63,006 nt of DNA, filler included, from Basidiobolus ranarum (GCA_040143965.1; 39 parts of 39 records of this genome joined end to end with filler, not necessarily neighbours in it); one strand, 5' to 3'. Numbered from the whole stretch's first letter, positions 3,908 through 62,596 are shown. Notes: a model not told the origin generated them from the sequence alone. Translations and numbers: made by a program.

Positions 3908-4777
3908 TTAAGGTGGGCGACGCAGATCTGAGTGTATCAGGCCCAATTTGTGATCAATTTTGCTCTTTCCAGAGCCCACAAATGGCTGTCTGTGTTGCCT
4001 ACCGTATAGGCAACCTTCAAATAGCTCCAGATCAGGTGGAATTTCAAAATTTAGTCTCAAAACCATCTTGCTTTTGATTAAATTTCTCATATTTTCAGTT
4101 CCTAGATGACCCAATCCACAGTGCCAGATTTTCCTGTCTATCTCTTTAGCTGTGGCAGTATTAACTTTTTCATATACTGGCCTAATATAAAGAAATTTAT
4201 AAAAGTTGTTTTGCTTAGCTCCAGAAGCTTCATAAATCCCTTTTTGAACCCTGATTGTGCAGCCATTTTGACCAAAATTAAAGCTATATCCCTCAGATGT
4301 AGCATTACTCACTGATAACAAGTATTTTGCTATCCCTGGCATATATAGCACATCTTTCAGTGTCCAATATATGCCCCTGAGATGCCTCCAGGATCCACTT
4401 CAATTTCTTCCACTCCCATAGCTTCTAGTGGCTAGTCATCTCCCATATAAACCTTCATGTTTATGTCACTTTTAACTGTCTTAAACCAGTTTTTTTGAGT
4501 AGAGAAATGTTGAAAGGCTCCAGAGTCAATATACCACCACCTACAATCTTGTTCAGAGGTCACTGATAGGACAGAAATGAATAAAACTTCCTCTTTGGTT
4601 GAAACCTGAATTGCTTGTTCTGACTTCTCATATTTGTTGTAATTTCTTGATTTGCAATCTTTTAACTGGTGTCCTGGTTTGTTACAACCATATCATAAAC
4701 CTGGTTTCCTTCTTTTGTAACCTTTGTACTTGCCAAAGCTATGTTTTGCAGCTCCAAAAAGATCCACTTGCTCAGAT
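3908..4777 (-). mobile_element. Ty1/Copia gag-pol fragment (zinc knuckle, protease, pre-integrase), degenerate
   Basis: C..CNKPGH..KDC knuckle, WYIDSGA protease motif, WH..LGHLG, LIHSDL. Confidence 0.9.
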
Positions 4778-22905: not shown

Positions 22906-23770
22906 CTCCCACTCAACTAAATATTTATATATCTTAATCCTAATTTAAATCTTAATTCTTCAAATTTTGGCTTGGGTAATGGTTTGGTAAGGATGTCAGC
23001 AATTGTTTCCTCAGTTGGACAGTACTCCTGTTGGACATGCTTATTCTCAATAGCTTCCCTAACAAAGTGATGTTGAATGTCAATGTACTTACTTCTAGCA
23101 TTAAATTGGAGATTTTTAGCTAAATAAATATGACTTTGATTATCCTTGAAAATTTTAGAGGGTATGCTTTGCACAATGCCCAAGTCTTTGAACACTTTTC
23201 TTAACCACATAGCCTCCTTTGTTGTATGTGATGCTGCCAAGTATTCTGTTTCAGTTATTGAAAGTGCTGTGGTGGCTTGTTTCTTACTATTCCAAGATAT
23301 GGCTGCTTCACTCTAGAGAAAGATATATCCAGTGATAGATCTTCTGTCCTCAATATCACAATGCCAATCTACATCACTAAACCCAATTAGATCCTTATTC
23401 TCATAAGAATATGTGTATCCTGATCCCAGATCAATTGTACCCTTCAAATATCCAAAAATCCACTTAACTGCTGCATAATGCTCAGATCTTGGGCTTTGCA
23501 TATGTTGGCTGAGTGCTCCCACTGCAAAAGAGATATCTGGCTGGGTTTCAGTTGTAGCTTAGACCAAATTTCCTACCCTAGATTGATAAGGGAACTCATG
23601 GCTTTCAAATACATATTTTGAGCTATATTGGGCCAATTTTCATCATTTTTGATTAGATCTTTTACTAGTTTTACATCTGGTTCCGTGGAAGTTGCTACTG
23701 GCTTGCAATTCTCAATCCTCTAACATTTGAGAATATCTGAGATGTATTTAGGTTGATTCAGAGTAATAGA
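22906..23770 (-). mobile_element. Copia RT C-terminus, RNase H and PPT
   Basis: AVK.IF.YLKGT, LIGFSD.DW, EAMWL, SKYIDIQHHFVRE, ADILTKPLPKPKF. Confidence 0.92.
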
Positions 23771-29201: not shown

Positions 29202-30719
29202 ATCTAGTTTGAAGCAAAATAATGCAGAACAGGCATTTTTTGGAGCTGTAATATATCCAACAGGCTTCAATAATGGTGGCCCTGATAGGAAAGCAATCAT
29301 CTGCCAGTAATGCAAAAAACCAGGCCATTTAATCAAAGATTGCAGCAAAAGGACTTTGCCAAATAGCTAAAATTGGAACCAGCAAATCAACCCATCCAAA
29401 CAAGAGTAGTCTACTTAGGTGATGACTATGCACTAGAGGCAGTGGGTAAGGGCACAGTTGTGCTCAAATTAGTACAGAATTCAGCTACACCATCTGCAAA
29501 ATTGGATGATGTACTCTGTGTACCAAATATAGCCATGAATCTAATTACAGTAAGCCAAGCAACAACCCAAGGACTAAATTTCATGCATAGCAAAGCTGGA
29601 TGTGCTAGCACGGATCAGAAAAATACCAAATTATCTACTGGGATCAGAACCCATAACTTATACAAGCTTGAAATCAACAAATTGCATTCAGAGCATGCAA
29701 ACTTGGCCAAAACCAGTGTAATAAGCTATCAAATGTGGCATAGAATCTTAGGCCACATTGGGGAACAAAGACTGACCCAAATGCTCCAAAATCAGCTTGC
29801 TTCAGGCCTAGATACTAAAACATCACAACATTGGCTATGTGTGAAGGTTGGATATATGGAAAACTTCATAGACAGCTATTTTCAAGCTGTGGAGAGATCA
29901 AAACCACTCAGAATTCTGCCCTGGCTTATTCTGACCTATGTGGGCTCCCAAAAACAACTCACTTGGTGAAAAAAGATACTTGGTGAGCTTTGTTGATGAC
30001 AAAACAAGTTACACTTAGGTATATTTTCAAATAAAACTCTGAAGCCTTAGCTATGTTCAAGGCCTACAAAGCAATGGTTGAGAACAAATGAGCATTAAAT
30101 ACAAGGGTACTATGGAGTGACACTGTTGGAAATATAGCTCAAAAGACTCTGCTAGTTGTTGTTCCAAACACTGAATTAAACAACAAACTACTGTACCTTA
30201 CTCTCCACAGCAAGATGAAGTTGTAGAGCATGCTAATAGTACCTTTGTGGAGAAGGTTAGATCAATGTTACATGATCTAAAATTAGATTACCAATATTGT
30301 GCTGAATCTGTCTCCACTGCAATCTATATCAAAAACAGACACCCAACAAGATTGCTACAAAATTGTACTCCATTTGAAGCCCTATATTGATCAAAATTAA
30401 GTGTGGATCTTCTCAGGATCTTTGGTTGCACAGCATATTGCTTAATTCCAGCTCAAAATGCTCTAAATTGAACCTAAATGCAGATAATGCATATTTCTTG
30501 GTTACTGTGATGAATCTAAGGCCTGCAGACTGATCAATACCAAAAATCATAAGTTAATGATGTGCAGAAATGTAATTTTTGATGAATAAGCAAGTTTTTT
30601 GCTTCAAATCCCAGTGCTTAATCAAGAAAACACAATCAGCACTATTCAGGAAGTGTCTGACAAAATGCCAGCTGTATCTGGGCCCTATTTCTAAATGGAA
30701 ATCTAGAGGAACAGATTTG
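29202..30719 (+). mobile_element. Copia gag-pol fragment (knuckle, pre-integrase, integrase core), degenerate
   Basis: C..CKKPGHLIKDC, WHRILGHIG, FVDD, TVPYSPQQ, LRIFGC.AY, CIFLGY. Confidence 0.92.
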
Positions 30720-35671: not shown

Positions 35672-37140
35672 ATAGTTTGCCTCAAAGTTTTGGTAACACT
35701 GCCAAAAGTCAAGATACTGTGGAGATACCACAGTTATATGACCAGAATGATGTAGGTCCAAATGCAACTTTGGTCAAACCAGTAAGTCCAGACAACTTTA
35801 AGGACTTGCTGCTAGATGTTGACCTTGGTTATTCCAGTACCAATAGTAGTATATCAGAAGTTGAAGAAGAAGATGATGGTTTTGTTATGGACTCTTTGTT
35901 ATTGGCAAACATTAGTCCACTCATAACACTTGCTGTAAAGGAAGTGTCACAATTCTGATCTTGGCATGCTGATACACTACAAATAGAACTCCTCTATTAT
36001 GAGATTATGACATCATATCTGCTGTGCAATCTCTTCTTGGCAATCTTGTTTTAGTTTATCCATATTACCTTATACCAAAGTCATGTTCTTTGGAACATTC
36101 CATGAAACCTAACCACTCATGTCATCTCTCACATGGTGTATTGAAGGTCACCTGATCATCCTTACATCATCCCTCTTGGTATTGGTCCTTGTAGTCCCCA
36201 ATGCCCTGACTCTTGAACTTGCCACAGTATATTTCTTATTAAGTATATTATGTTTCACCTTGCAATATCTATATAAGCCCCATGTATTCCTTGATCAGAC
36301 CTCAGTCTGATCAATGCCAGTTATTAATAAAGATTCTTGCCAAAGTATCTTACTTGTCCAGTCTTGTCTTGTCTTGTCTTGTGATCTACACCCAAGTACT
36401 CTCCTGTCTTCTAGCCTCATGTTGTTGTTCCCAGTCCTTGTCCAGTTCCTTATTGTGACAGGAAGCAGCTTTGATTATTGAGGAGTGGAGAGTTCAATCC
36501 AATCTTAGCAACCAGGTGTTTATTGGTTTTCTTACATTATACCACAGTTGATTGGCAACTTTTGCTTGGCACAGACCTGTTACAAGTGGAAAACACATGT
36601 CAATTGTATGACTTATAGTCCTTCAGTAATTAAACTACCTTCATATCCAAATGGTTGTTTGGCTTTCACAGGTGATCTGAAAAACCTGAAGTCATGTACT
36701 GTTTATACACAATTAGCAATCACTAAATCAGGTAAATATTGTTCATATTTGGCTTATATATGTTGATTCCCCATCTTAAAGTTTCAATGAAATCACACAA
36801 ATATAGATCATTGATCCAATACCAAAGTACTCACCACAAAGCTGATGGTATTACTAATATACTTGATGGATATCACTACCAGAATCTGAAAAGTCAAGGT
36901 TTCTTTGAGAACACATATCATCATGCTTTTGCATTGGCTCTGGATGGTTTCTCACTAAACAAATATACCATTGGAAAGGCTTGCTGGCCAATAAATTTAA
37001 TCAACTTAAATCTTCCTCATTCTCAATGGTATAAGAGTCATAATATTTTGATACTATCCATCATATCTGGACCTAAATCCCCAGTACTTATAGATAGCTT
37101 CTTGGAGCCTTTGATTGCGGAATTTGAATGGTTATCTAAT
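35672..37140 (+). mobile_element. CACTA/En-Spm transposase (Transposase_21/Tnp2-like), interrupted by a solo LTR
   Basis: LALDGF...CWPINLINLNLP..WYK..NILILSIISGPKSP..IDSFLEPLIAE; upstream PNGC..F..C..C zinc motif. Confidence 0.9.
35945..36460 (+). repeat. Solo LTR family D with 5-bp target-site duplication GGAAG
   Basis: GGAAG|TGTCA...TGACA|GGAAG; the empty site GTAAAGGAAGCAGCTTTG is seen at ~51271. Confidence 0.93.
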
Positions 37141-37795
37141 TGGGATCATTTCTGCCTGATAAGTATTGGCAACATTGAGAGTTGTTTGNNNNNNNNNNNN
37201 NNNNNNNNNNNNNNNNNNNNNNNNNNNNNNNNTTAATTAATTAANNNNNNNNNNNNNNNNNNNNNNNNNNNNNNNNNNNNNNNNNNNNTATGAATACCAT
37301 GAGAGTATTCCCAAGAAACCGCCATCACACCATCAAAATCCCTGGCAGAATGCAAGCCACCAATATTGTGAAGGTTACCTGACAGTTTTGCTCTTTTGGA
37401 GGGTGGATCCAATTGGGATCAAATTAATTTTATTTTTGTTAGGGCCCACTGAAGAACTTTTGATACCCGCAGTAGAGTACATGCAAGCATCACAAATAAC
37501 AAAGTAGGCTATGTTTTCAAGGAAACTGTTGAAAGACTGGAGCATTTCTTTGGGGAAAATATGGGCTGTTTGGAGGAACTTTAGAAAAGTGGAGTTGTGA
37601 ATAGCTTTTGTGTGATAATTATTTATTGTCGAGAAATAAAGCATTTACACATTTGGGTGGAAATACAAAAAACTAACACTGGAGTTGTATTCAGAACATC
37701 TGTGGGAGTAAGATGAGCTACATTTGGGGCAATTTGGATGAGTTTGAAATTTCCAAAATGGAATTGCTAATTCTCACATTATTCACATATATATA

Positions 37796-38113: not shown

Positions 38114-38804
38114 CTCCCACTCAACTAAATATTGATATAACTTAATCCTAACTTAAATCTTAATTCTTTCATTTTGGTTTGGGTACTAGTTTGGTAAGGA
38201 TGTTGGTAATCCTGTTGTTAGTTGGACAGTACTCCAGCAGATTTGCTTATTCTCAATAGCTTCCCTAACAAAGTGATGTTCAATGTCATTGTGCTTACTT
38301 CTAGCATGAAATTTGGGATTTTCAGCTAAAGAAATACAACTTTGATTATCCTTGAAATTTATGGTGGGTGAACTTTAAACAATGCCCAAGTTTTTGAACA
38401 GCTTCCTTAACCACATAGCCTCCTTTGTTGTATGTTATGCTGTCATGTACTCTGCTTCAGTTGTTGAAAGTGCTACAGTGGGTTGTTTCTTGCTTTTCCA
38501 AAGTATACTTGGGTGTCCTTTCTGGCTAGTAAGGATGAAGCCTTTGATACCTTCAAGAAGCTCAGAGCAATGGTGGAGACTGAAGCAGGTCTAAAGATTA
38601 AGATTATCCATACTGATAATGGAGGGGAATATACCTCAAAACTCTTCTCTAACTTCTGCTCAACACATGGGATAAAACAGCAGACTACAGTGCCATATTC
38701 TCCACAGCAGAATGGAGTAGCAGAATGTGCAAACAGATCAATAATGGAAAAGGCAAGATCAATGCTTCATGATCAAGATTTACCAAAACAGTTCTGGGCT
38801 GAAT
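38114..38804. mobile_element. Copia RNase H (-) fused to Copia integrase core (+)
   Basis: KFHARSKH on the - strand; HTDNGGEY and PYSPQQNGVAE.ANR on the + strand. Confidence 0.88.
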
Positions 38805-38904
38805 NNNNNNNNNNNNNNNNNNNNNNNNNNNNNNNNNNNNNNNNNNNNTTAATTAATTAANNNNNNNNNNNNNNNNNNNNNNNNNNNNNNNNNNNNNNNN
38901 NNNN

Positions 38905-41459: not shown

Positions 41460-42035
41460 TAGGATCTAGAATTTTGCTAACTTCATATTAAGGGTGTTTA
41501 TCAACTTGATTGCTGGGGGTAGGTCAATAGATTGGCCTTCAAAGGTGTTTCTGGCATGTGGCTTTAGGAGAGACACATGGAATACATTGTGGACTTTGAA
41601 ATGGGCTGGGAGTTCAAGGCGGAAGGCTACAGAATAGATTTGCTTAATAATCTTGAAAGGCCCTAGTCTCTTATGATCAAGCTTATCACAAGGTCTAGAG
41701 GTTTTGATATTTTTCTGGAGTAGCCAAGCATAATCTCCTGGCTTGAGATCTGGGCTTGGCTTTCTTTTCATATCAGCAAAGTTCTTGTATTGAGATTGAG
41801 CATGCTCCAACTCAGATATTAGTTGTTTATGGATATCCTTAAGGAAAGTGGCATGGTCTGAGGCAGCAGGGCAAGGTACATTGGATGGTGGGTCAATTGT
41901 GAAAAAGGATGGAATTCATAATTTGCAAAGAAAGGAGTTTGTTTTGTTGAGGTATGATAAGAGTTGCTGTAAGAAAATACAGCAAGAAGCAAGAGTTTTG
42001 TCCAATTATCCTGATTATTGTTGATAGTGCATCAC
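41460..42035 (-). mobile_element. Gypsy (chromovirus-like) integrase C-terminus
   Basis: KLDHKRLGPFKI...AFRLELP..FKVHNVFHVSLLKP (GPY/F module); EYEVSKIL chromodomain start in a shifted frame. Confidence 0.88.
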
Positions 42036-42136: not shown

Positions 42137-42904
42137 ATGCATCTCAAACTCAATTTATTCATCATTTCCGTAGTACTAGCAAAGGTATCTGTTGGAGTTC
42201 CTCTGAGCGCACTATCCTCTGACTATAACAATGCTGCCCTTCCAAACACAAGCCAGTTAGGGGAAAGCAGTCAGGTTCTGTCGCCATCCACGCAGCAGTC
42301 AGGATACACTACCAATCAGTCAGAGCAGTCGCCACTTCTCAAGCAAGTGTTCAATACCGTGACAAGAAAGCACGACATTTTAAATGACGCAAGAATAGCT
42401 AACGACAGAAATTCGAATATAGAATTCCAATCAGGCCCTAGCTTGGAAGCCGAAGGTAGCGAAGTACAGTCCGACCAAGGTGAACGCGCGGATACTGAGT
42501 CTAATGGTGGGTCCAATATTGCTGCCGGAACGGCTCAAGTCGCACCTAATTCCGAAGGTGATACAACTAATGATCTAGTGCCATCCTCAGAGAATATAGG
42601 ATCAGAAGGGAGCATACCACTACAACAGATGGTGAATAATCTCGGTCAGACTTTACCTCAGTCAGCCTTACTTGACCATGTTCAAGGGAATTCAGCACAG
42701 ACAGGACATGCTCTGTCAGATTCGAATCAGTTTGATCAAGTGCAACGGATTGATCAAACACTATATCAGTCATCTCAACCCTCACAGAATGCTGAGACTC
42801 CACAAACCCCTGATGAGGAAGAACCCGAAGATCTGGGCTCAGGTTGTAGAAGCTGTGGTTGCAGGCATTGTGGTCGTAGACGCCGCTTTGGTCGCAGATA
42901 TTGA
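42137..42904 (+). CDS. Secreted S/Q/N/E-rich protein with a C-terminal Cys/Arg-rich tail, 255 aa
   Basis: Intact ORF; signal peptide MHLKLNLFIISVVLAKVSVG-VP; CpG retained. Confidence 0.8.
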   Translation: MHLKLNLFIISVVLAKVSVGVPLSALSSDYNNAALPNTSQLGESSQVLSPSTQQSGYTTNQSEQSPLLKQVFNTVTRKHDILNDARIANDRNSNIEFQSGPSLEAEGSEVQSDQGERADTESNGGSNIAAGTAQVAPNSEGDTTNDLVPSSENIGSEGSIPLQQMVNNLGQTLPQSALLDHVQGNSAQTGHALSDSNQFDQVQRIDQTLYQSSQPSQNAETPQTPDEEEPEDLGSGCRSCGCRHCGRRRRFGRRY

Positions 42905-43965: not shown

Positions 43966-45264
43966 CTAATGCTCCTCCAATGCTCCAGGAATGTCTTTGA
44001 GGTCCACATCAATGAGGTCTTGAAGAGCTCCACCAATGATCTGGATTCCTTCTCTGAGTTGCTCCTCGCTGATCACGAGTGGTGGTGCTAAACGAATGAT
44101 ATTCTCGTGAGTAGGCTTGGCCAAGAGCCCTCTCTCCTTCAAGAGCAGACACAAGTGCCAGGCAGTCTTGGGAGCTGACTTCTCCTGATCAATCACGATG
44201 GCATTCAACAAACCGCGACCACGAACGCATGAGACAATGGGGGAGTTCAAGGCACGAAGTTCTTTACGGAAAATCTTACCAAGACGATCAGCACGCTCGA
44301 CAAGTCCTTCCTCCTTGACGACCTCCAATGCTGCCATGGCAACCGCACAACCAAGAGGGTTTCCACCATAGGTAGAACCGTGCTCCCCAGGGTTGATACA
44401 CAACATCACTTCCTTATCAGCCAACACTGCTGACACGGGGTAGACGCCACCAGAAAGCGCCTTACCGAGCAATACCATGTCTGGGCGGACGTTTTCATGA
44501 TCAATAGCAAGCATAGCACCAGTACGAGCAATACCGGTTTGGATCTCATCGGCAATGAAGAGAATGTTGTGCTTCTTGCAAAGGTCATAGCACTTACGGA
44601 GATATCCCTCATCTGGAACCATGATACCAGCTTCACCCTGGATGGGCTCGACAAGGAATGCGGCGATGTTCTCGGGTTGAGCCTCGACGGCTGCCTCCAG
44701 GTCTTCATAGTTGTTGTAGCGGATCTCACGTCCAGTCTTCTGACAGAATGGTCCGACATTAGGAAGGTATGGTCCAAAGTCGTTACGAGCATCAGGATCG
44801 GTGGACATGGAGATGATACCACAAGTACGACCGTGGAAGTTGTTGCTGCATGAGAGAACGATAGCTTGATTGGTAGGAATTCCCTTCTTCATGTATCCCC
44901 ACTTACGAGCAAGCTTGATGGCGGTCTCAACTGCTTCAGCTCCGGTGTTCATAGGGAGAACCATGTCATATCCAAAGTACTCAGTGACATACTTGGCATA
45001 TTCACCAAACACATCGTTGTAGAAGGCGCGTGAGCTGAGGCACACCTTTTGGGCTTGGTCCACCAAAGCCTTGATGATCTTAGGGTGACTGTGGCCTTGG
45101 TTGACTGCAGAGTAGGCTGAAAGGAAATCATAGTAACGCTTACCCTCGGGATCCCAAACGTACACCCCTTCAGCCTTGGAGAAGACCACGGGAAGTGGGT
45201 GATAGTTATGGGCACTGTGTTTGTGCTCAAGGTCAATAATTTGTTGGGAAGTGGAGATGGTCAT
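43966..45264 (-). CDS. CAR2: Ornithine aminotransferase (class III PLP enzyme), intronless, 432 aa
   Basis: [67 protein letters not shown]. Confidence 0.98.
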
Positions 45265-45367: not shown

Positions 45368-46600
45368 TTATCTGACAAGTTACCCAAATGCGTTGATCTC
45401 GAAATCACAAGCGGCAAATGGAACTCCGAAGAAATTAACAACATGGTTAAAATCTATACCATGCTTGGCTCTTCTGCAACCCGGAAAAGACTCTTTGGCG
45501 ATGTAAGATTAAAACTTTTCGACGGAAGTTTTGTCCATAAACTAAATTCCAAATCCGGTATCGTTGCCCTGCAAAATGGTGTCTATGATCTCCACGAAGG
45601 TATAGTTCGCGAACCTGTCCCTTCTGATTATGCCTCTATTCGAGCCCCAACCCTCCTCCTCGATCCTATCCCTCAACATAAGTTATCTAAATTAATGGGC
45701 GTCTTAGAAAAAATATTCCCCGAACCAGAACTCCTAGACTTTTTTATCATGACCTGTGCATCGTTCTTAGAAGGTTACAATTCCAACAAAATCTTTTACA
45801 TCTGGTGGGGCAAAGGTAACAACGCCAAAACTGCTATACAAACATTGGTCGCCAAAACTTTCGGTAACTATTGTGCCACTCTTCCAACTACTCTTATTAC
45901 CCGAAGCAGAGGCTCGTCTTCTAACGCAACCCCTGATATGTGTCATCTTGAAGGCAAACTTGTTATGTTCTTGCAAGAACCAAACTCCGAAGAAAAAATT
46001 AAAGGTGGTGTCGTTAAAGAACTCACCGGAAACGATAATATTTATATCAGAGAACTTTACAAACAACCTCGATCCATTAAGATCAAAGGTAAGATGATTC
46101 TCGTCTGTAATAATATCCTAGATATTCCAGACATAGATGCCGCACTTAAACGTAGAACCATTGTCATCCCTTTCTTAAGTACTTTCTTGCCCAAACGAGA
46201 ATTTGACTCTCTAGAAAACCAAAATAAAAAATATACATATTTGGTTGAACCTAATGCAGAAAAAATATTAGAAGATTCATGCGACGAATTTATGTCGTTG
46301 CTATTGCGCGAATATCCCAGATATCTTAAGTGTGGCCTTCAAGTACCTAAGATTATTTCTGATACAATAGATACATATCTTGTTGCTCACAATTATCCAG
46401 TGGTGTTTAAACGCAAATACTTCAAGATCCAACCCGGTACTAATATGGAAGTACGTGAAATTTATGGCCAGTTTAAATCTTGGTTCAAAGATGTGCATCC
46501 AAGTCATAACATTCCAACATTAGAAAAATTCGCGAACGCTCTTAACTTAGAATGGGATGGAGTACTAGAAGATATATTTGTTTCTTATGATGAAATGTAA
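45368..46600 (+). CDS. D5-like primase-helicase (SF3 helicase part), NCLDV-like, 5'-truncated
   Basis: NGVYDL (D5_N), Walker A GKGNNAKT, ATPD, Walker B FLQEP, KELTGND, motif C LVCNN, Arg finger ALKRR; frame is open to the contig edge. Confidence 0.92.
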   Translation, partial: LSDKLPKCVDLEITSGKWNSEEINNMVKIYTMLGSSATRKRLFGDVRLKLFDGSFVHKLNSKSGIVALQNGVYDLHEGIVREPVPSDYASIRAPTLLLDPIPQHKLSKLMGVLEKIFPEPELLDFFIMTCASFLEGYNSNKIFYIWWGKGNNAKTAIQTLVAKTFGNYCATLPTTLITRSRGSSSNATPDMCHLEGKLVMFLQEPNSEEKIKGGVVKELTGNDNIYIRELYKQPRSIKIKGKMILVCNNILDIPDIDAALKRRTIVIPFLSTFLPKREFDSLENQNKKYTYLVEPNAEKILEDSCDEFMSLLLREYPRYLKCGLQVPKIISDTIDTYLVAHNYPVVFKRKYFKIQPGTNMEVREIYGQFKSWFKDVHPSHNIPTLEKFANALNLEWDGVLEDIFVSYDEM

Positions 46601-47325
46601 TTTTGTTTTTTAAAATTTCTTATTCTTGTAAATATGCAAGTTGTTATTTAACTCTATACATAACCTTTTTTCTTTACCTTAACCCAATTTGGATCTTGGT
46701 TCGAAACTTTTCTCCTCTAGAAACTTTTTTTTCTAAATTTATATTTTTGCGAACCAGATTAAAACTTTGTTGATTATATCTTTCTAGTTTAAACTTTCAC
46801 ATCTGGAACTAATTTCTTTTTAAAAACCCAAACTCTTGTTGTTTCGAAAACTTTTTTAATATCTTACGAAATTATTTTTNNNNNNNNNNNNNNNNNNNNN
46901 NNNNNNNNNNNNNNNNNNNNNNNTTAATTAATTAANNNNNNNNNNNNNNNNNNNNNNNNNNNNNNNNNNNNNNNNNNNNTATCTTTATCTTTATACACCT
47001 AACTATTTCATATATCACATATAAGTTAGTTAACATTACTTAGTCAAATATCACTTAGCTGAAAATCGGAACATATATTATATATATATGAGAATAATGT
47101 GGGAATTAGCAATTTCATATTGGAAATTTCAAACTTGTCCAAATTGCCCCAAAGATAGCTCATTTTACTCCCACAGATGTTATAAACACAACCCCAGTGT
47201 TAGTTTTGTGTATTTCCACCAAGAAGTATATATGCTTTATTTCTGGACCATAAACAATTATCTCACAAAGCTATTCACAACTCCACTTTTCTAATGTTCT
47301 TGCAAACAGCCCATATTTTCCCAAT

Positions 47326-48385
47326 ACATCACAGCAAAGATATAAGTATCCTGTTATAGAACTTCTGTCTTCAATATCTCTTCCCCAATATGCATCTGAG
47401 CATCCTATCAGATCAAAGTTTGAACCAGAATATGTGTATTTTAAACATGGATGCCCAATACCTTTCAAATATCTGAAAATCCACTTAACTGCAATGATTT
47501 GATCAGATCCATAACTTTGAAGAAATTGGCACATAACTCCCACCAAAAATGCAATATCTGGCCATGTTCCAACCATGATATGCATCAAACTACTAAGCAT
47601 TGATTGATAAGGAAATATCTGGCTTTCATTTGAATTCAAAATGTCTGATTTGAGCCATTTTTGGTCCAGTTAAGATTTGTCTCCATTGAGGTAGATACTG
47701 GATTACATTCTTCCATTTTAAACTTCTTTAGTATATCCAGGATATACTTGGACTGGTTTAAAGGTATTGTCTTGGTAGTTCTATCAATATTAATTTGTAT
47801 TCCAAGATAGTACTTCAGTTCACCAAGATCAGTCACATTGAATATGCCAGATAAGCTGGATTAGGTATTCTCTAAAGTCTTCAAGTCATTGATTGCTATA
47901 ATAAGGTTATCTACATTTAAGGCTAATAAAACTGGGTTTGTCTTATCTGGCCTGAAGTAGATACCATAGTCAGCATTGCTCTTGTGGAATTTGAGTGTAT
48001 CCAAAAAAGAATCTATCTTGCTATTCCAAGCTCTTGGATACAGTTTAAGCTGTAGAGTGTTTTCCAGAGTCTGCAAGCCTTTTTAGGTTTTTGTGGGTCC
48101 ATAAATCTATCTGGCTGGCCCTTATAGATCTCCTCAGCAAGCTCACCATTCAAAAAAGCAGCTTTAACATCCATTTGATGTATAATAAAATGATATTTAG
48201 CTGAAATTGCTAAAATCAATCTGATTGAATTAAACTTTGCTACAGGAGCAAAAGTGTCTATCTAATCTATTCCTGGTTTTTGGGAATATCCTTTGGCTAA
48301 TAGTCTAGCCTTGTACCTTTCTATATTGCCATCAGAGTTGTATTTAACTTTAAACACCTGTTGGCAGCCAATTGATTTTCTTTCC
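47326..48385 (-). mobile_element. Copia reverse transcriptase, degenerate
   Basis: YKARL.AKG, HQMDVKAAFLNG, LALNVDNL, TDLGELKYYLGIQI. Confidence 0.92.
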
Positions 48386-52952: not shown

Positions 52953-55045
52953 ATTGCCATCAGTGAATTTGTCTATTGCCCTACTGAAGAAATTGTTGGA
53001 GGATCTTGACATAATGGGGGTAGACTTTGAGTTTTAGAAGCAACTTATGATAGTGTGTTTTTAGTCAGTTTATTCTTAAGAGTATATGGTGACTTATATA
53101 GTAGAAAAGTAAATCAATTGTTTGAGATACTTGGGAGTTTGTGTAACAAGATATAATAGATAAGTGGGGGTAATAAGACATACTTGTTATATAGATGTAG
53201 AGATATGCCTATTTAGAATATAGAGGCTATAGATATGTTGCTTTCTGTTTCTGATATATGTATCATAACTAAATTTAACCAAGATGTTGAATAAAGATTA
53301 ATTATCCAACACTTTCCCTAAATCCTATATAGNNNNNNNNNNNNNNNNNNNNNNNNNNNNNNNNNNNNNNNNNNNNTTAATTAATTAANNNNNNNNNNNN
53401 NNNNNNNNNNNNNNNNNNNNNNNNNNNNNNNNATTAGTATGCATGCCTTGATTTAGATATTTTAGGCTTTGTATTCCAGCCATAATGAGAATCAAAAAAT
53501 ACAAGAATCTTGTTGTGTTGCATCTCTACCTACGCACATACTTGACTGATCAGACATAACTCAACAACATCAATATGCTTTACCAGCAAACTAATGGTGG
53601 GAAAATTGCTAAACATCTGAAATTTTCAATAGCACTGACACTTGGCAAATAGCTGACCATTGTCACTGCTCACAATGAGAATGCGCTCTTGGATTTTGGT
53701 AAATTTCCATCAAGAATTCATCCAAAATATTCCCAACTTGCAGTCAACAGATGATCTACCACAAGTAGATGTGTCATTGCTTGAATAGATTACCCCATGG
53801 CTGAAACAATAATACTGCATATCTTGATCTAACTCTCCAAGAAGTCTTTTTTGCAGCTTTGCTAGAAATACTGTCAGATTAGCACACAAACAAATTAGTG
53901 CAAATTATAGAGGTGCTAAATCTGGGTCCATGTATTGGGTTTTGTTGCTGTTATTGTGAGCAAACAATGCAAAAGCCTGTGAGCATATTGAAAAAAGCCC
54001 TTTGATGGAAGGTTAATATACTCTGGAGTCTCCTTAACCCAACACATTATATCTACCACTGATTTTGCTGATACATTGTTAATCAGATTAGCATATTGTA
54101 GTACTGACACCCTAACAAAAGTAAAATCAATCTGATCCAGATCAGATCCACCCATCTAAGTTGCAAAACCATCAGAGAACTCTTGCAATATGAGTGACTT
54201 ACATCCTGCCAGGGATCTTGTATTAGGAAAATACGGGCTGTTTGGACAAACTTTACAAAAGTGGAGTTGTGAATAGCATTGTGAGATAACTATTTATGGT
54301 CCAGAAATAAAGCATATATACATTTTGGTGGAAATACAGAGACTAGCACTGGCGTTGTGTTCAGAACATCTCTGGGAGTAAAATAAGCTATCTTTGGGGC
54401 AATTTGGACAAGTTTGAAATTTCCAATATGGAATTAGCTACTTCTCTCATTATTCATATATATATATAACATATGTTCCAATTTGCAGTTAGGTGATGGT
54501 TGACTAAGTAATCTTAACTAACTTATATGTCATATATAAGACTTGTTCCATTGGCCCAGGTCAGATTGTGCCGCTTGATCCAGCCTGCTAGTACACCATC
54601 TGGTGCAATCTGTCAATTACCATGGCTGGGTCCTATAACACTCAATTGGACACTATAAGGAACAATATGGCACTATCCCACCACAATTGGACACAATGAT
54701 TTTTTTGGAGATATCGTGCCAGCCTGTACCAAGTTACCCGATTTAGTATTGCCGAATTACAATTTTGGGTAACTGACAAGGTAAATTCATCCCCTCGTTT
54801 GTAACTTACAAATTACTGAATGTGTAACAATAAACAATTTATACTGTAACTTACCAAATCAAATGTATAACCAAGACATTCGCATGTTTTTAGGCCAATC
54901 ATTTGTCCCTCACTAACACAGTATCCTGATTTTCAATTGGGCACANNNNNNNNNNNNNNNNNNNNNNNNNNNNNNNNNNNNNNNNNNNNTTAATTAATTA
55001 ANNNNNNNNNNNNNNNNNNNNNNNNNNNNNNNNNNNNNNNNNNNN

Positions 55046-55137
55046 GCGCTTGGAGCTGGAAGAGCTTGTACTGCCAAACCCAAGAAAGCAGTAGCGGTAA
55101 GGCAGATGTAAGATAGACCAGATGAAATTTTGACCAT
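55046..55137 (-). CDS. 5' end of a secreted protein (signal peptide)
   Basis: MVKISSGLSYICLTATAFLGLAVQA-LPAPS; CAAAATGG start context; TATAA about 35-40 nt upstream. Confidence 0.7.
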
Positions 55138-56374
55138 TTTGATTATGTATTTCCGTATAATTGATCGTGAGGTTTATAATAGCATGGGTTCAGTCTTATA
55201 TCTAAACGACGATTCTGTCTAGCAAGTGTCTATCCAATGATTTAAGGATCCCGATCAAGGTGAATTCCCTCGCACTACCTTTCCAATCCAATTTTTGTCA
55301 ATTCTAGATCATCTCTACCATATTTAGGAATACGATTAAATATGGCAAGTTCTGTTTAACGATTATTGACATTCACAAAAATAGTAGATTGAGCATCAGA
55401 AAAACTTTACCATATATGGAGATTACTTCTCCTCGTATTGCAACAGGAAAAGTTCAATTGGGAACACTTTCGATCAAGTAGAAGTGTATTTCTTGTTCTA
55501 AGTTAGAAAGATCTCCACATAGTGGGGGTTTTCTGGGCAAAGAATAAGACAAGTTTGAAAAGTTAAATGATTGACAGCTGAAAGTAATAAAACTAATTAC
55601 ATTCAAACGAATAGGACCAGTAAGAATGAAAATACATGTTCATTGATTGGCAACAAAAATTGTAACTGACATGATTCTACCTTTATCTCAGGTCCCTTGA
55701 GTTTTTGGACCAAAGTTGAATGAATTGTGAACGTTCCTTGAACATAAAAAGAATATGGCTATTGCGTAGTACTTAGATCGGTTGCTTTTTATTCGATCCA
55801 GAATAAATGATATGCGTTGTTTATAAATAAACCATTCTCATAATTGAAGTTGAGGTTAAATAGATTACAATCACAAAATAAGTGAGGGCTTGGTAGGAGA
55901 TATTCCCTCTCAACTAGTTGATTAATACTCCTTCATTGCAGAGTAAAGCGCGGACGTTTTTAATCTCAGATTTCTTATTCGGAGTACTCACAATACTAGT
56001 GGCCGCGATATGGAACAAAGTACAGTGAGTTGCTAGGCAATACAACATATTTCCATTTAGAATTCCAGAAAGTAAGGTGCGATAAACAGTAATTAGTTAG
56101 AATAGGAGAGATCTCTCTGGTATGATTTTAGTGTACATATTGACTGATTTCGTTGTAGGGACATTTGATCTCAAGAGTTTTCTTAATTCATTTACCCTGA
56201 CCGGGCTAGCACTATGAAGATAAGTACTTGACATGGTAGATATTTTATATGTTACATTTATTCTGTAATCAATGGGCTCTAATTATTCTATATTAAAAGT
56301 ACGAAAAGGGGATAAGAAACAAAAGATAGCTAGGTGCGTTATCTTTTGTGGGTATCTCTTGTCAGAAATGGTAT

Positions 56375-56558
56375 CTACTCATACCAGATGAATGATACTC
56401 CTTCACCAGTATTGAAGGTGACGTAAGTGGTGATATAAGGTCCTCCCTCTCCATTGATTATGTAGTTCCAGTTACTCGTATACACACTTCCGTCATCGTT
56501 GATGCTTTCGACTACGGCAACGTGGCCATATGAGTCACATCCTTGATATCCTGGCTGG
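56375..56558 (-). CDS. CHAP-domain amidase/peptidase, C-terminal 60 aa (5'-truncated)
   Basis: QPGYQGCDSYGHVAVVESINDDGSVYTSNWNY...GVSFIWYE*; GHVAVVE is the CHAP catalytic-His strand. Confidence 0.85.
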
Positions 56559-56658
56559 NNNNNNNNNNNNNNNNNNNNNNNNNNNNNNNNNNNNNNNNNN
56601 NNTTAATTAATTAANNNNNNNNNNNNNNNNNNNNNNNNNNNNNNNNNNNNNNNNNNNN

Positions 56659-56907
56659 TTCAATAGTATGCACGTGGTTTGACTTCTTAGCAAGAACATA
56701 GATGGTGTTCTTGACAGTGTCGGTTGGGACAATGGAGCTATTGTCAGCTTCAGTGTAGGAAGTCTCAAATTTACCATCAAGAAGAACCTGGCAAGTGAGT
56801 TCGACAACATCGTGCCAGTCCTGAGTGTGACGAATAACCTTAGTGACGCGGACTTTGGTCTTGCCATAGGCTTGTTTCTTCAAATAGGCGTCAGAGTTGT
56901 TGGACAT
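56659..56907 (-). CDS. Urate oxidase (uricase), copy 1, 5' part
   Basis: YGKTKVRVTKV, SYTEADNSSIVPTDTVKNT. Confidence 0.95.
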
Positions 56908-57456
56908 AGTTTGATGTTGCAGCTAATAGAAGCTGATGAAATCCACAGGTGAATAGCAACTTTTTATACCGAAATACAATGAAACAGTTCGTTACACTAG
57001 ATCTTACGAATATTAAGTGATCTGATTTGCAACCATGGTCAAGGAGCCTCGGCCTTGATATGAACCAAGTGTAACTGGCATTTGAGAATGAATTCTCAGC
57101 AAAAAAACTATTGATTAGATTGAATGATAGATCGCAATACTAACCTGGTTAGGCCGGTCGTGGGTTTATTATTCAAGTAACATTATACTACAAATATACA
57201 AGATTTTATTGAATGTGGTAGCCACAGATGATTACAAATGCTCTCTATAAATCACCGTTTAAAGCGCTCCAAAGGTAGGACTAGCACCGGTGTCAAAAGA
57301 CGCCTCAAATAGGGCCACATTTCAGAAGAATTCTCATCGTAAAATTTGTTTGATTTGTCCAAGGTAGCACGGATCTGAACTTCGAAAATATATAAAGCCT
57401 TCAATATATGAAGCAGTGAAGTACAACTACCAGCTTGCTCAGATATCTAACAAATA

Positions 57457-58170
57457 ATGTCTTCGTCTATCGAAATAAAACGCCAGGCCTACGGTAAAGC
57501 TAAGGTCAGAGTCACTAAAGCTATCCGTCATACCGCCGAGTGGAATGACATTGTTGAACTTACCTGCCAAGTTCTCCTTGAGGGTGACTTTGAGACGGCT
57601 TACACCAAGGCTGACAACAGCATGGTAGTCCCAACTGACACAGTTAGAAACACTTGTTATATCATTGCCAAGAAATCCGACCATGTTCAAACCATTGAGC
57701 GTTACGGTTACGAACTTGGCAAACATTTCGTTGACAGATACCCTCATGTCACCCACGCCAATGTCCACATTGTTCAATCCCGTTGGGCAAGAATCAACGT
57801 CAATGGTGAGCCTCACCCTCACTCCTTCTATCGCGATGGATCCGAAACCAGACAAACCTGGTTGACTGTCACTGCCAACAATGTCAGTATTAAATCGGGT
57901 TTGGAAGGCCTGCTTGTGTTGAAGACTACTGGTTCATCCTTTACCAACTTCCATCTCTGTGAGAACACCACCCTTCAAGATGCTGATGATCGCATATTCT
58001 CTACCACTGTCAAGGCTCACTACAACATCAACACTTCCACTGGAGTTGAAAACATTCCGTTCGATCGTATCTTTGATGGAGTTCGCAAGACCACCTTGGA
58101 TGTATTTGCTCACGATGACTCTGCCTCAGTCCAAGCCACCATGTACCGTATGGCTGAGTTGATCTTGAAG
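57457..58170 (+). CDS. Urate oxidase (uricase), copy 2, 3'-truncated
   Basis: YGKAKVRV, VVPTDTVRNT, HPHSF, VLKTTGSSF, DRIFST, SASVQATMY. Confidence 0.97.
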
Positions 58171-58270: not shown

Positions 58271-59225
58271 GGAATTTGAACGGTTATCTAATGGGGTTCA
58301 GATGGGTGAATATTTTATTAAAGCTAATATCATTGTATGTATTGGTGACACTCCTGCCATCAGTAAACTTGGAGGTTTTTGCAGGCACAATGCACTATCT
58401 TGCTGTAGATTTTGTCAAATCAATGGAGTTTACTCTAACAGGCATATGCATTACTACTATCCAAATACAACACTAAACTTCATGATTTTACTGTTGAGAG
58501 CCTGGTCAGATTTCAATATGGTCACTGATATCAATTCACCATATAGTCAGTCTAACATCAAACTTGGCAATAGCTGTAAGCCTAAGTATATATTGCTCAA
58601 GGGTATCAGCTGGAGCCAGAGCTTCCCAGTAGGCACTATGCACTTACTATACAACAACATTCCAATACTACTTACTCAGCTATCTAGTGGAAAATTCAAA
58701 ATGAACAAGCCATTTGAGATAGGATCAAAGTTTGAATCATTTAGGAAAATGCTTGAAAATGTCTAGATATCATCATATTTTACCAGGACTCCCATCAATA
58801 TCCACTCATCTAGGTGTTTATTTGCATGCAAAGACTGGAATTATTGGATTTGTATATATTCACATGGAGTTTTGAAAAGAGTTCTGCCTGACAAGTATTG
58901 GCAACATTGGGAGTTGTTTGTGGATATTGTTAATATATTCTTATGGCAATAACTCATATTGGCAGATCTCAGGCAGATACAGCAACTGTGCAAAGATTTT
59001 GTAATTGGATATGAAAAACTTTATTACAGCTTTAAAGAAGATAGACTGAATCTATGCTGGTATACAATACATTCCCTGCTGCATCTTTCACAATGCTTAG
59101 AGATTATAGGCCCTTGCTATACTTTCTGGGAGTTCTCAACAGAGCACACCTGTGGTGAAATGACGCTCTATGTGAAATTGTCAGTATTGCTGTATGCTAA
59201 TCTGATTAACAATGTATCAGCAAAA
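58271..59225 (+). mobile_element. CACTA transposase core, the least degenerate copy
   Basis: GDTPAISKLGGFCRHNALSCCRFC, GTMH, IHSLLHL...GP...FWEF. Confidence 0.9.
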
Positions 59226-59782: not shown

Positions 59783-61880
59783 NNNNNNNNNNNNNNNNNN
59801 NNNNNNNNNNNNNNNNNNNNNNNNNNTTAATTAATTAANNNNNNNNNNNNNNNNNNNNNNNNNNNNNNNNNNNNNNNNNNNNAATAAATAAACCTATTGT
59901 AAGCATTATATATTTAGCATAAAGTCAAGTAGATATAGTCAAGTTCCCTAGTGAGCTAGACATAAGAGTATTCCAAATAGGATAGGGTTATGGTGCATAG
60001 TTCTTCTAAGCCAGAGTAAGATAGTTTGGGAGGCTGGGGATATGAGGGATGCAATCCCCCATATAAAGAAAAAATAGGGGGTCTCAGTGATATAATCCCC
60101 AAATGCTTATGATTGGATGCCTTATGTAAAGATTCCACCCCACCCAAGTCAGAAGTCTCAACTGTGGTGATTTTAACCTAGGGGTAAATATTTTACATAG
60201 AAATTAGCTTGACTTTGACTATATATATCAAGTTTCTTAACCACAACATATTCATGAGGCTCAAATGAATGACTGCATATCAATTGTAGTTTTCCCTTGT
60301 AGTCAAGCAGCCTTATATGTCATGATCTGCTATGGACCAAACCAAAGTGTCAATACAGAAGACTCTTTTCAATGATAGCTTCAACATTATATATTGGCTT
60401 ACATGCTTGTTTAAATTCAGTGGAGATTTGTCAAGATCAAAAGGTTTACTTCCGGCAGGTCTTTGGGTGAATATGTAAAACAAGTCAACAACTTAGTCCC
60501 ATAAAAGGAAGCTTTTACCTTACATCTTATTATTTTGGTCTTCTCCAGTTCAGAATTCAAGCTAATTGAGCTTTTGTTTCTTACAAAACTATCAAAGTTT
60601 ATGTCCTAAAAATTTGGTTGACAAGTAACTTCTATGAGCTAATCAACAGAGAAATACAGCATCCCAGGAAACATATTAATGTCATTTTTGAGTTAGAGCT
60701 TTGCTTGAAATCTGTATATTTAGATACATATCACAAAGACAATAATTACAAATTAACATCATATATGATAACAAACATCTATTATCAAACTTATTTCCAT
60801 ATATATCATTTCCTGGATAAATCTGACTTGTTAGTACAAATTATGGGTGAAGAAACACTTACTTCTATTCCAGATCATGGTACCAATTTAGTCAGATTGT
60901 GTATGGTGGCTCAAGTCACACAAATACAAAGACATTAATTAAAACATTTGATCATTACATCAAGCATCAATTCACTATTTGTACTGCAAACAAAAAGACT
61001 GGTGCCAAGTCATAATGTGGAGTTGCTCAAGATTTTCCTTGTTTAGGTTTAGTAGGCAAGGTGATGGCATTTCTGGTTGGAAAAGTAAGAGTGCTCATAA
61101 TTATTGCTACTAAGAAGCTTTATATATACTTGAGGCTAATCATTTGATTGCATAATTGTTTTTTAAAGTAGCTGATTTCTCCTATATTCAGTGTTGAATA
61201 TGATAAATATAACATCTCTTTCAACTATGTCATTATGAGTCTTCTTCACAAATTGTAACATGTATCTGTTTAAATTAGCATTGCCTAAACACCTATATAG
61301 TCATATATAGCTTAGTACTTAGTTATCTTGTAATTCACTAAGATATTATCAATTATTCTCAATCAGAATTTACTTAGAATATTTTTACCAACTTNNNNNN
61401 NNNNNNNNNNNNNNNNNNNNNNNNNNNNNNNNNNNNNNTTAATTAATTAANNNNNNNNNNNNNNNNNNNNNNNNNNNNNNNNNNNNNNNNNNNNCAATGG
61501 TGGGCTTTGATGGAGATATTGACACAAACTTGTGTTGGGTATGAGCTAAACCTTGGGTATGAAGAACTCTATAAAAATATTCAGGAGAATATATCAAAGT
61601 GACTAAGGATTTTGAAGGTGACAAATTAGCATTCAACTGGTAATTGTGTAAAATTTGAGATATGTTTTTTGCACATGTGTTGATCCATAGTTCTCTGAGA
61701 TTTTAGCCAATCATTTGCAACTATTTTGTGAGATCTTGAAATTTACTCCTGAAACTGAAAAAATTGATTAAAATCAAATCTAACTTGATGATTTTATGAT
61801 GGTAAGTAAATGGTCAATCCCAAATGGATTAAAATTGTAATGGTTTTCCTGCAATAACAATCCTCAAATTTCTGTTAGGG

Positions 61881-62596
61881 ATTCATATTGAATTTTCCAC
61901 TATATAGCTGAGTAAGTATTATTGGAATGTTGTTGAATAGCAAGTGCATAATGCCTAATAAGAAGCTCTGTCTCCAGCTGATCTCCTTTAGCAATATAAT
62001 CTTAGGCCTATGGCTAATACCAAGTTTGATGTTAGACTGACTATTTGGTGAATTGATATCAGTGCTTGTATAGAAATCTGACTGAGCTCTTGATGGTAAA
62101 ATAATGAAGTTTAGTGTTGTTGTTGAATAGTAGTAATGCGTATGTCTGTTAGAGTATACTCCATTGATTTGACAAAATCTACAGCAAGATAGTGCATTGT
62201 GCCTGCAAAAACCTCCAACTTTACTGATGGTAGGAGTGTCACTGATACATACAATGATATTAGCTTTAATAAAATATTTACCCATCTGAACCCCATTAGA
62301 TAACATTTCAAAATCTGCAATCAAAGGCTCCAAGTAGCTATCTATAAGCACTGGTGATTTAGATCCAGATATGATAAAATATTGTGACTCTTATATCATT
62401 CAGAAGGAGGTAGATCTAAGTTGATTAAAATTATTGGTCAGCAAGCCTCTCCAACAGTATATTTGCTTAGTTAGAAACCATCCAAAGCCAATGCAAATGC
62501 ATGATTATATGTGTTCTCAAAGAATCCTTGTCTTTTCAGGTTCTGGTAGTGATATCCATCTACCATAATGGCAAAACCATCAGCTCTATGGTGAGT
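61881..62596 (-). mobile_element. CACTA transposase fragment
   Basis: FALALDGF, IDSYLEPL, DTP.ISK.GGFCRHN. Confidence 0.88.

Follow-up and report, generated by a model that had tools for sequence, protein, structure and literature searches.

A CHAP-domain gene fragment from Basidiobolus and its putatively secreted peptidase C51 family of probable bacterial origin

Introduction

A short open frame at the edge of one contig, within a window of 63,006 nucleotides of joined contigs analysed as a whole, raises the question whether the fungal genus Basidiobolus carries a cell wall hydrolase of bacterial type and, if so, from which lineage the gene was taken up and which role its product might play. 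The earlier note on this DNA had interpreted the frame as part of a domesticated, horizontally acquired bacteriolytic enzyme. Large-scale bacterial gene transfer into Basidiobolus is already published: the main text of Tabima et al. (2020, PMC7466969), whose work on bacterial HGT focuses on secondary metabolism, reports 806 candidates of bacterial origin (5% of the genes) in B. meristosporus CBS 931.73, most of which are intron-poor and compositionally ameliorated.

Results and Discussion

The open frame and its contig

The window consists of 39 contigs of 1512-1526 bp, ordered by size and separated by 38 linkers of 100 bases, so that neighbouring features on different contigs are not physically linked. 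The contig in question spans 55046..56558. On its minus strand the frame 56375..56602 translates as QPGYQGCDSYGHVAVVESINDDGSVYTSNWNYIINGEGGPYITTYVTFNTGEGVSFIWYE, followed by a stop. The 60 residues specified by the codons 56557..56378 form the end of a CHAP (peptidase C51) domain, and these codons belong to a gene that is termed gene A in the following; its TAG stop is located at 56377..56375 (cta on the plus strand). The frame lacks a start codon because it runs into the 100-base linker at 56559..56658, an artificial element (N run, TTAATTAATTAA, N run) and not biology, which marks the contig end cutting gene A. The absence of a start and the 60 residues had both been described correctly in the earlier note; its reading needs correction in the strand, which is minus, and the letter left unread in "G.D" is a cysteine.

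Judged by its sequence, an open CHAP frame such as this is far beyond chance. Searching the window with family proteins by tblastn returned the gene A codons (56378..56557, minus strand) with an E-value of 7e-32. The 5' part of the gene, expected to encode a signal peptide, a linker and the catalytic Cys, lies beyond the contig end at 56558, and a tblastn search with 32 family proteins detected neither this Cys half nor any further CHAP piece among the other 38 contigs.

CHAP identity, catalytic residues and predicted fold

The 60-residue fragment matches the Pfam CHAP profile (PF05257) with an E-value of 7.2e-6 and 26.9 bits, which is above the cut-off of 26. Residues 5-30 of the fragment align to positions 59-80 of the 81 profile positions, corresponding to the last quarter of the profile, while six full-length relatives from Basidiobolus reach 49.9-61.9 bits. 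The catalytic His is part of the GHVAVVE motif of the fragment; the proposed assignment to the second half of a CHAP domain was thereby confirmed. This His has been retained in 35 of 36 Basidiobolus paralogs, and no variation occurs at its position in an alignment of 25 rows. An Asn-Trp-Asn motif follows 17-19 residues past this His in gene A. Among 37 rows the position His+17 is occupied by Asn in 30 and by Asp in 7, and His+19 is Asn in all 37. We take these positions to be the polar third residue (Glu, Asn or Asp) of CHAP enzymes, about 17 residues after the His, and the Asn near to it, following the positions in LysK.

The catalytic columns of the 36 full-length paralogs contain Cys in 35, His in 35, Asn or Asp in 36 and the second Asn in 36 proteins, a conservation that speaks indirectly for functional copies in the fungus. 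As suspected previously, the half carrying the catalytic Cys has been lost at the contig edge at 56558, the Cys itself being present in 35 of the 36 full-length relatives. Two of these 36 have lost a catalytic residue, namely P0016 (in the Cys region) and P0031 (His to Tyr), and some copies may therefore be inactive.

Since the fragment matched the NCBIfam models of staphylococcal amidase and PcsB only far below threshold, no equivalog name can be assigned, and the look-up in the ESM Atlas returned generic bacterial CHAP clusters only. The AlphaFold2 model of P0001, the closest full-length relative, was built from the 25-row alignment and has a mean pLDDT of 79.5, with block means of 88-98 over residues 61-181. 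A Foldseek search of the PDB with this model resulted in 23 matches at E <= 0.001, of which the listed ones are CHAP wall hydrolases; the best matches were 2k3a (S. saprophyticus), the hub of phage phi812, 5t1q (S. aureus), PcsB, LysGH15 and LysK. The same CHAP set, comprising 7 sequences at E <= 0.01, was recovered when the PDB sequences were searched with the profile. According to the model, P0001, and with it presumably the product of gene A to which it is related, has a papain-like alpha+beta fold.

A large family in Basidiobolus

The fragment was searched against a library of 5.8 billion proteins. Its best match is P0001 (B. meristosporus CBS 931.73, K493DRAFT_299142; E 4.6e-28) with 90% identity over all 60 residues and the same C-terminal end, and P0002 (B. 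ranarum K7432_004553) shares 88% identity over 60 residues as well as the C-terminal end. All three sequences have the extra Cys in QGC and a four-residue insert before GGPY in common. When longer proteins were sought, 14 of 25 candidates matched the fragment at E <= 0.01, and 11 of the 14 belong to Basidiobolus (seven to B. meristosporus CBS 931.73, four to B. ranarum). At least nine of the 14, all of them from Basidiobolus, are 68-90% identical to the fragment; the remaining three matches, some of which are labelled "surface antigen", show identities of 50-62%.

The Basidiobolus matches comprise 169-249 residues and are annotated as Peptidase C51 domain-containing. The family is thus already deposited under this name and gene A is a further copy of it, although identical to no deposited protein; the annotations of P0001 and P0002 are automatic and their function is predicted. 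Since the best annotated match in B. ranarum reaches 88%, the gene A copy appears to be absent from that protein set.

At least 37 distinct paralogs were identified, 32 of them among the best 120 of 1210 profile matches and four plus one in further look-ups. B. meristosporus accounts for 20 and B. ranarum for 17; both are minimum counts, given that the library had been clustered at 90% identity. The full-length relatives consist of a signal-peptide-like N-terminus, a short or Asn/Ser/Gly-rich linker and a single C-terminal CHAP domain. Signal peptides were judged, for most members, by the hydrophobicity of the N-terminus, which is a heuristic only, and the family proteins are accordingly predicted to be secreted on the basis of these hydrophobic stretches. 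The subfamily of gene A has a length of about 180 residues and extra cysteines; an LTC/QGC pair occurs in 13 of 36 proteins, and the gene A fragment carries the QGC cysteine of this pair.

One CHAP subfamily of Basidiobolus (P0008, P0009, P0015 and P0133) is extended at its N-terminus by an additional module, which comprises about 55 residues, contains six cysteines and does not match any Pfam entry. This module may represent a binding domain that was added after the transfer.

Gene arrangement downstream of gene A

Several paralogs per scaffold, hence tandem copies, are usual in the deposited Basidiobolus genomes, as deduced from scaffolds of identical length and from adjacent locus tags. On the contig examined here, gene A is followed by a spacer of 1237 bp (55138..56374) with a GC content of 34.2%, compared with 45.0% in the coding piece, which agrees with the AT-rich DNA that had been noticed behind the frame. 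Its longest stop-to-stop frame comprises 61 codons, and it contains neither a tRNA nor a repeat shared with any of the other 38 contigs. Judging from its location, the spacer can be expected to contain the 3' UTR of gene A as well as the promoter of the gene downstream. A possible polyadenylation signal, a weak candidate recognised by its consensus only, is the hexamer AATAAA at 56257..56262 on the minus strand, 113 nt downstream of the stop.

The downstream gene, gene B (55046..55137, minus strand; ORF 54994..55173), starts at the ATG at 55137 with 30 signal-peptide-like codons (MVKISS ... VQALP) before it runs off the other contig end. Its start aligns by tblastn to residues 1-27 of P0007, P0001 and P0004 with E-values of 0.001, 0.014 and 0.019, every alignment beginning at residue 1 and lying on the strand of gene A, with MVK and the ALP motif in common. 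The maximum hydropathy of 2.07 over 12 residues falls inside the range of the signal peptides of the family. Signal peptides are compositionally biased and the match is therefore suggestive rather than strong; gene B, which sits where a tandem copy would be, may thus be a second paralog.

Relatives in Ktedonobacteria

Seven of the best 120 of 1210 profile matches carry organism names outside Basidiobolus, all of them of Chloroflexota: five Ktedonobacteraceae, one Thermogemmatispora and one "Chloroflexota bacterium". Eukaryote-named matches are from Basidiobolus only, as found for 11 of the 14 fragment matches, 32 of the best 120 of 1210 profile matches and five further look-ups. Weaker homologs in other eukaryotes could be present among the profile matches past the best 120 of 1210.

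A motif scan covering one genome per prokaryote species yielded 164 confirmed stretches, and the best 80 of these 164 resolved into 76 loci. All 76 belong to Chloroflexota, mostly to Ktedonobacteria, with the genera Ktedonobacter, Ktedonospora, Thermogemmatispora, Dictyobacter, Thermosporothrix and Tengunoibacter; the motifs were derived from the family alignment, which biases the scan towards this CHAP subfamily. In a sample of 301 Chloroflexota genomes, 79 match at E <= 1e-5 and 222 are without a match. The distribution is bimodal, with 21 genomes having a best E-value of <= 8e-38 and 58 of >= 3e-24; the unpublished genomes G040, G274 and G175 all fall among the 58 weak matches, and none of the conclusions depends on them. 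We infer that the 21 genomes with strong matches are Ktedonobacteria.

The bacterial relatives comprise 300-360 residues. Their cytoplasmic head is rich in Pro and is followed by a single membrane span and a conserved linker, which leads to the CHAP domain at the C-terminus; the fungal proteins have only a signal peptide and a linker in front of this domain. Annotated as "surface antigen" or "CHAP domain-containing protein", these membrane-anchored proteins occur for instance in Thermogemmatispora carboxidivorans and Ktedonobacter racemifer. Their CHAP domains are 50-62% identical to the fragment and 41-60% identical to the CHAP domain of P0001, share the Cys, His and Asn-x-Asn motifs with the fungal family and are, as in the fungus, encoded in multiple and often tandem copies; two bacterial genomes have four and nine family matches, of which three and eight are at E <= 1e-38. 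The GC content of the CHAP-coding regions in Ktedonobacteria, measured for 28 of the 76 loci, ranges from 48.5 to 62.7%.

One protein of the Ktedonobacteria type (P0044) additionally contains a Ser/Thr kinase domain. Furthermore, P0047, P0059, P0072, P0022 and about 20 similar metagenomic proteins carry the same CHAP subfamily at the N-terminus, followed by a hydrophobic C-terminal tail, and some of these variants have an extra N-terminal domain.

Phylogeny and direction of the probable transfer

The loci provided 129 CHAP pieces, of which 127 were full-length without X; thinning at 80% identity left 73 rows, namely 66 Ktedonobacteria-like ones and seven of 12 outgroup stretches from weakly matching Chloroflexota genomes. 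After addition of 36 Basidiobolus domains and four metagenomic proteins, with the gene A fragment and P0080 left out, the maximum likelihood tree comprised 113 rows and 123 columns; its bootstrap was not fully settled and its outgroups are from Chloroflexota only.

All 36 Basidiobolus rows form one clade (support 100/100), the stem of which measures 0.86 changes per site, and this clade groups with all Ktedonobacteria-like rows against the seven other Chloroflexota CHAP domains with a support of 100/99. The four metagenomic variants constitute one clade (93/93) among the Ktedonobacterial rows. A node supported by 98/95 leaves five Ktedonobacterial sequences outside the group containing Basidiobolus. 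According to the AU test, a tree with all 70 bacterial rows as one clade was not rejected (log-likelihood difference 3.69, p = 0.407), the tested group having been named after the tree was seen. Basidiobolus could thus be sister to the sampled Ktedonobacterial family, and the donor can be described as "Ktedonobacteria-like" only. The nesting in a bacterial clade that the earlier note had proposed as evidence of transfer is supported as a grouping with Ktedonobacteria (100/99), while a position inside them is not statistically secured (AU p = 0.407).

The tree thus gives good support to a single origin in common with a Ktedonobacteria-like lineage. Horizontal acquisition from bacteria, as initially suggested for the fragment, is likewise supported by the restriction to Basidiobolus among the named matches and by the grouping of its clade (100/100) with Ktedonobacteria (100/99), and the same two observations speak against vertical inheritance across the fungi. 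Many subclades comprise one member each of B. meristosporus and B. ranarum, so that most of the expansion predates the split of these two species; the data fit a single old transfer followed by expansion. The coding GC shifts from a mean of 56.8% in the bacterial loci to 45% in gene A, which is near the mean gene GC of 0.4865 given for B. meristosporus in the main text of PMC7466969.

The opposite direction, from the fungus to bacteria, was considered and rejected. It is unparsimonious given that the family is multi-copy across several Ktedonobacterial genera, and the four and nine matches in two bacterial genomes stand against one eukaryote genus among the named matches.

Taken together, it is proposed that the CHAP domain of a membrane-anchored surface protein would have been transferred once, long ago, from a Ktedonobacteria-like lineage of Chloroflexota. 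A signal peptide would then have taken the place of the bacterial cytoplasmic tail and membrane anchor, the base composition presumably drifted to that of the host, and the family would have expanded to at least 17-20 members per genome, often in tandem. It may thus serve as a clean case of a bacterial surface-protein domain which was refitted for eukaryotic secretion and subsequently expanded.

Predicted function and alternative explanations

The product of gene A is presumed to be a small secreted CHAP cysteine amidohydrolase of about 180 residues with a Cys-His-Asn/Asp triad. Such an enzyme would cleave a peptide or amide bond of bacterial peptidoglycan and might lyse or weaken the bacteria sharing soil, dung and herptile-gut habitats with the fungus, for antagonism and/or feeding. 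We hold it to be highly probable that identity, fungal location and bacterial origin jointly apply to the frame. With good though lesser confidence, the explanation as a whole can be adopted, according to which the frame forms the 3' end of a gene in the nuclear genome of a Basidiobolus near to B. ranarum and gene A belongs to a secreted CHAP family that goes back to a single transfer and is predicted to cleave peptidoglycan. Its peptidoglycan substrate and antibacterial role are deduced from sequence relationships, and that the hydrolysis is aimed at other bacteria is a reading towards which we lean by a small degree only.

A bacterial contamination of the fungal assembly would account for a bacterial-type domain on a contig of 1.5 kb without a linked housekeeping gene, and the earlier note had named it as a possible objection. 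However, the contig is fungal in style, combining the AT-rich spacer and a putative second paralog start with host-like GC. The protein is 85-90% identical to Basidiobolus proteins encoded on scaffolds of 83-268 kb, but its identity to the best bacterial or metagenomic proteins is only 50-62%. A non-coding spacer of 1.24 kb at 34% GC is furthermore unlike bacterial gene density, the presumed start of the second paralog on the same contig resembles a signal peptide of eukaryote type, and the coding GC is 45% compared with 57% in Ktedonobacteria. A contaminant therefore seems extremely improbable. Somewhat more weight can be given to the assumption that gene A is a decaying or truncated pseudogene, considering that only 60 codons are visible, that large tandem families shed copies, that two of the 36 relatives are without a catalytic residue and that identity to annotated B. 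ranarum proteins does not exceed 88% even though a housekeeping gene reaches 99%. On the other hand, the frame is open up to a stop at exactly the usual end of the family, all visible catalytic and nearly invariant positions are kept, and the truncation is an assembly edge and not a lesion, so that a pseudogene appears rather improbable as well.

If gene A encodes a secreted and active enzyme, its role might still be non-antagonistic, either in gaining nitrogen and carbon from bacterial necromass or in the trimming of peptidoglycan fragments with consequences for the immune sensing of the host. The protein architecture fits this scenario equally well, no sequence feature separates killing from scavenging, and Basidiobolus inhabits herptile guts and dung (PMC9391592); the large expansion into diverged subfamilies is, as a weak argument, better suited to an arms race or to many substrates, and we consider the scenario unlikely, yet the least unlikely of the alternatives. 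The idea of a substrate other than peptidoglycan, such as fungal wall proteins, host proteins or small gamma-glutamyl or polyamine conjugates, draws on glutathionylspermidine and trypanothione amidases as distant CHAP fold matches (ranks 26-43), on the length of the stem that follows the transfer (0.86 changes per site) and on the extra cysteines of one subfamily including the gene A copy. Taking into account that the closest relatives in sequence and fold are all wall hydrolases, that the bacterial sister proteins are extracytoplasmic surface proteins and that the sequence around Cys and His hardly differs from that of the bacterial relatives, such a substrate seems improbable, if marginally less so than a pseudogene. 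Cleavage of bacterial peptidoglycan consequently remains the preferred prediction.

More tentatively, and with our doubts slightly outweighing our confidence, the 17-20 or more secreted paralogs could constitute the possibly largest known eukaryotic arsenal of a captured bacterial wall hydrolase, whose members would lyse different bacteria and help to shape the herptile gut microbiome; this arsenal would include the subfamily with the added Cys-rich N-terminal module and the subfamily with extra cysteines. Provided that the enzymes are active, they would offer a protein-level mechanism by which Basidiobolus controls amphibian and reptile gut bacteria, working alongside the published secondary-metabolite clusters, and a set of small, naturally diversified lysins secreted by a eukaryote whose specificities could be compared.

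Other features of the joined contigs

A complete and intron-free ORF of 432 residues, predicted to encode an ornithine aminotransferase, is located at 43969..45264 on the minus strand of another contig with a GC content of 48.7%. Its product shares 99% identity with the B. ranarum counterpart and 91% with the one from B. meristosporus, which identifies the assembly as that of a Basidiobolus near to B. ranarum. Two uricase paralogs are arranged head-to-head at a distance of about 530 bp on one contig, and both are cut by the contig ends; they comprise an N-terminal piece of 88 residues (56659..56922, minus strand; Pfam Uricase, E 5.4e-15) and a piece of 240 residues (57451..58170, plus strand; Pfam Uricase, E 1.1e-54).

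A frame of 410 residues with a cut 5' end (45368..46597, plus strand) matches DUF5906 with an E-value of 9.3e-8. Large DNA viruses and Polinton-like elements typically carry this domain in their D5-like primase-helicases, and the frame may derive from an integrated viral or mobile element. An ORF family with the Cys-rich motif CRHNALSCCRFCQINGVY and no Pfam match is repeated at 58272..58763 (plus), 61875..62390 (minus) and 36736..37188 (plus) and looks like a transposase-associated genomic repeat family. Polyprotein fragments of LTR retrotransposons were detected at 29367..29966 (plus; Pol_BBD and gag_pre-integrase) and at 41469..41915 (minus; Tf2-1-like SH3 integrase tail), and further LTR retrotransposon fragments were recognised by eye only at 3908..4399, 22917..23312, 38468..38860 and 47271..47669. 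Finally, an ORF of 255 residues without a Pfam match at 42137..42901 (plus) has a hydrophobic N-terminus, a long body rich in Ser, Gln and Asn and a tail rich in Cys and Arg; it may encode a secreted or wall protein.

Comparison with known systems

In the searchable literature no paper naming both Basidiobolus and CHAP was found. The main text of PMC7466969 does not mention CHAP, C51 or peptidoglycan; the genes of the family may be among those given in its Tables S4 and S5. The three terms are likewise absent from the main texts of Ciach et al. (2024, PMC11291939) and of the preprint 10.1101/2025.03.31.646025 on 19 Basidiobolus genomes, and the family is not mentioned in the main texts of the zygomycete secretome paper PMC9391592 and of PMC8778642. 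The family-level picture, comprising a single Ktedonobacteria-like origin, the refitting with a signal peptide and about 20 secreted paralogs per genome, appears to be undescribed in the searchable literature.

The CHAP hydrolases in the PDB that resemble the fungal proteins are staphylococcal SsaA-type CHAP proteins and phage CHAP lysins (2k3a, 5t1q and 2lrj; the phi812 hub, 9eum/9euf; PcsB, 4cgk; LysK CHAPK, 4csh; LysGH15, 4olk). They share the fold and the catalytic Cys-His with a polar third residue, match the family profile with E-values from 2e-20 to 4e-5 and reach a Foldseek probability of 1.00. In contrast to the fungal proteins they are bacterial or viral, often carry SH3b or LysM wall-binding modules, which the fungal proteins are without, and are only 17-30% identical to them. 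Since the cleaved bond varies among these hydrolases, the specificity of the fungal enzyme cannot be read from the likeness.

By analogy, the best-known functional parallel is the tick protein Dae2 ("domesticated amidase effector"), which was reportedly recognised in 2015 as a bacterial wall amidase acquired by a eukaryote with gain of a signal peptide. Dae2 originated from the Tae effectors of type VI secretion (NlpC/P60-like) and not from the CHAP subfamily of Basidiobolus.

A secreted and duplicated CHAP family of seven genes with a suspected bacterial origin is also described for the oomycete Saprolegnia parasitica (PMC3681718). The acquisitions in Saprolegnia and in ticks are independent events in other eukaryote lineages. 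Compared by description only, the Saprolegnia set parallels that of Basidiobolus in the uptake of a bacterial wall amidase, the gain of a signal peptide and repeated duplication, the expansion to at least 17-20 members per genome in Basidiobolus exceeding the seven genes of Saprolegnia.
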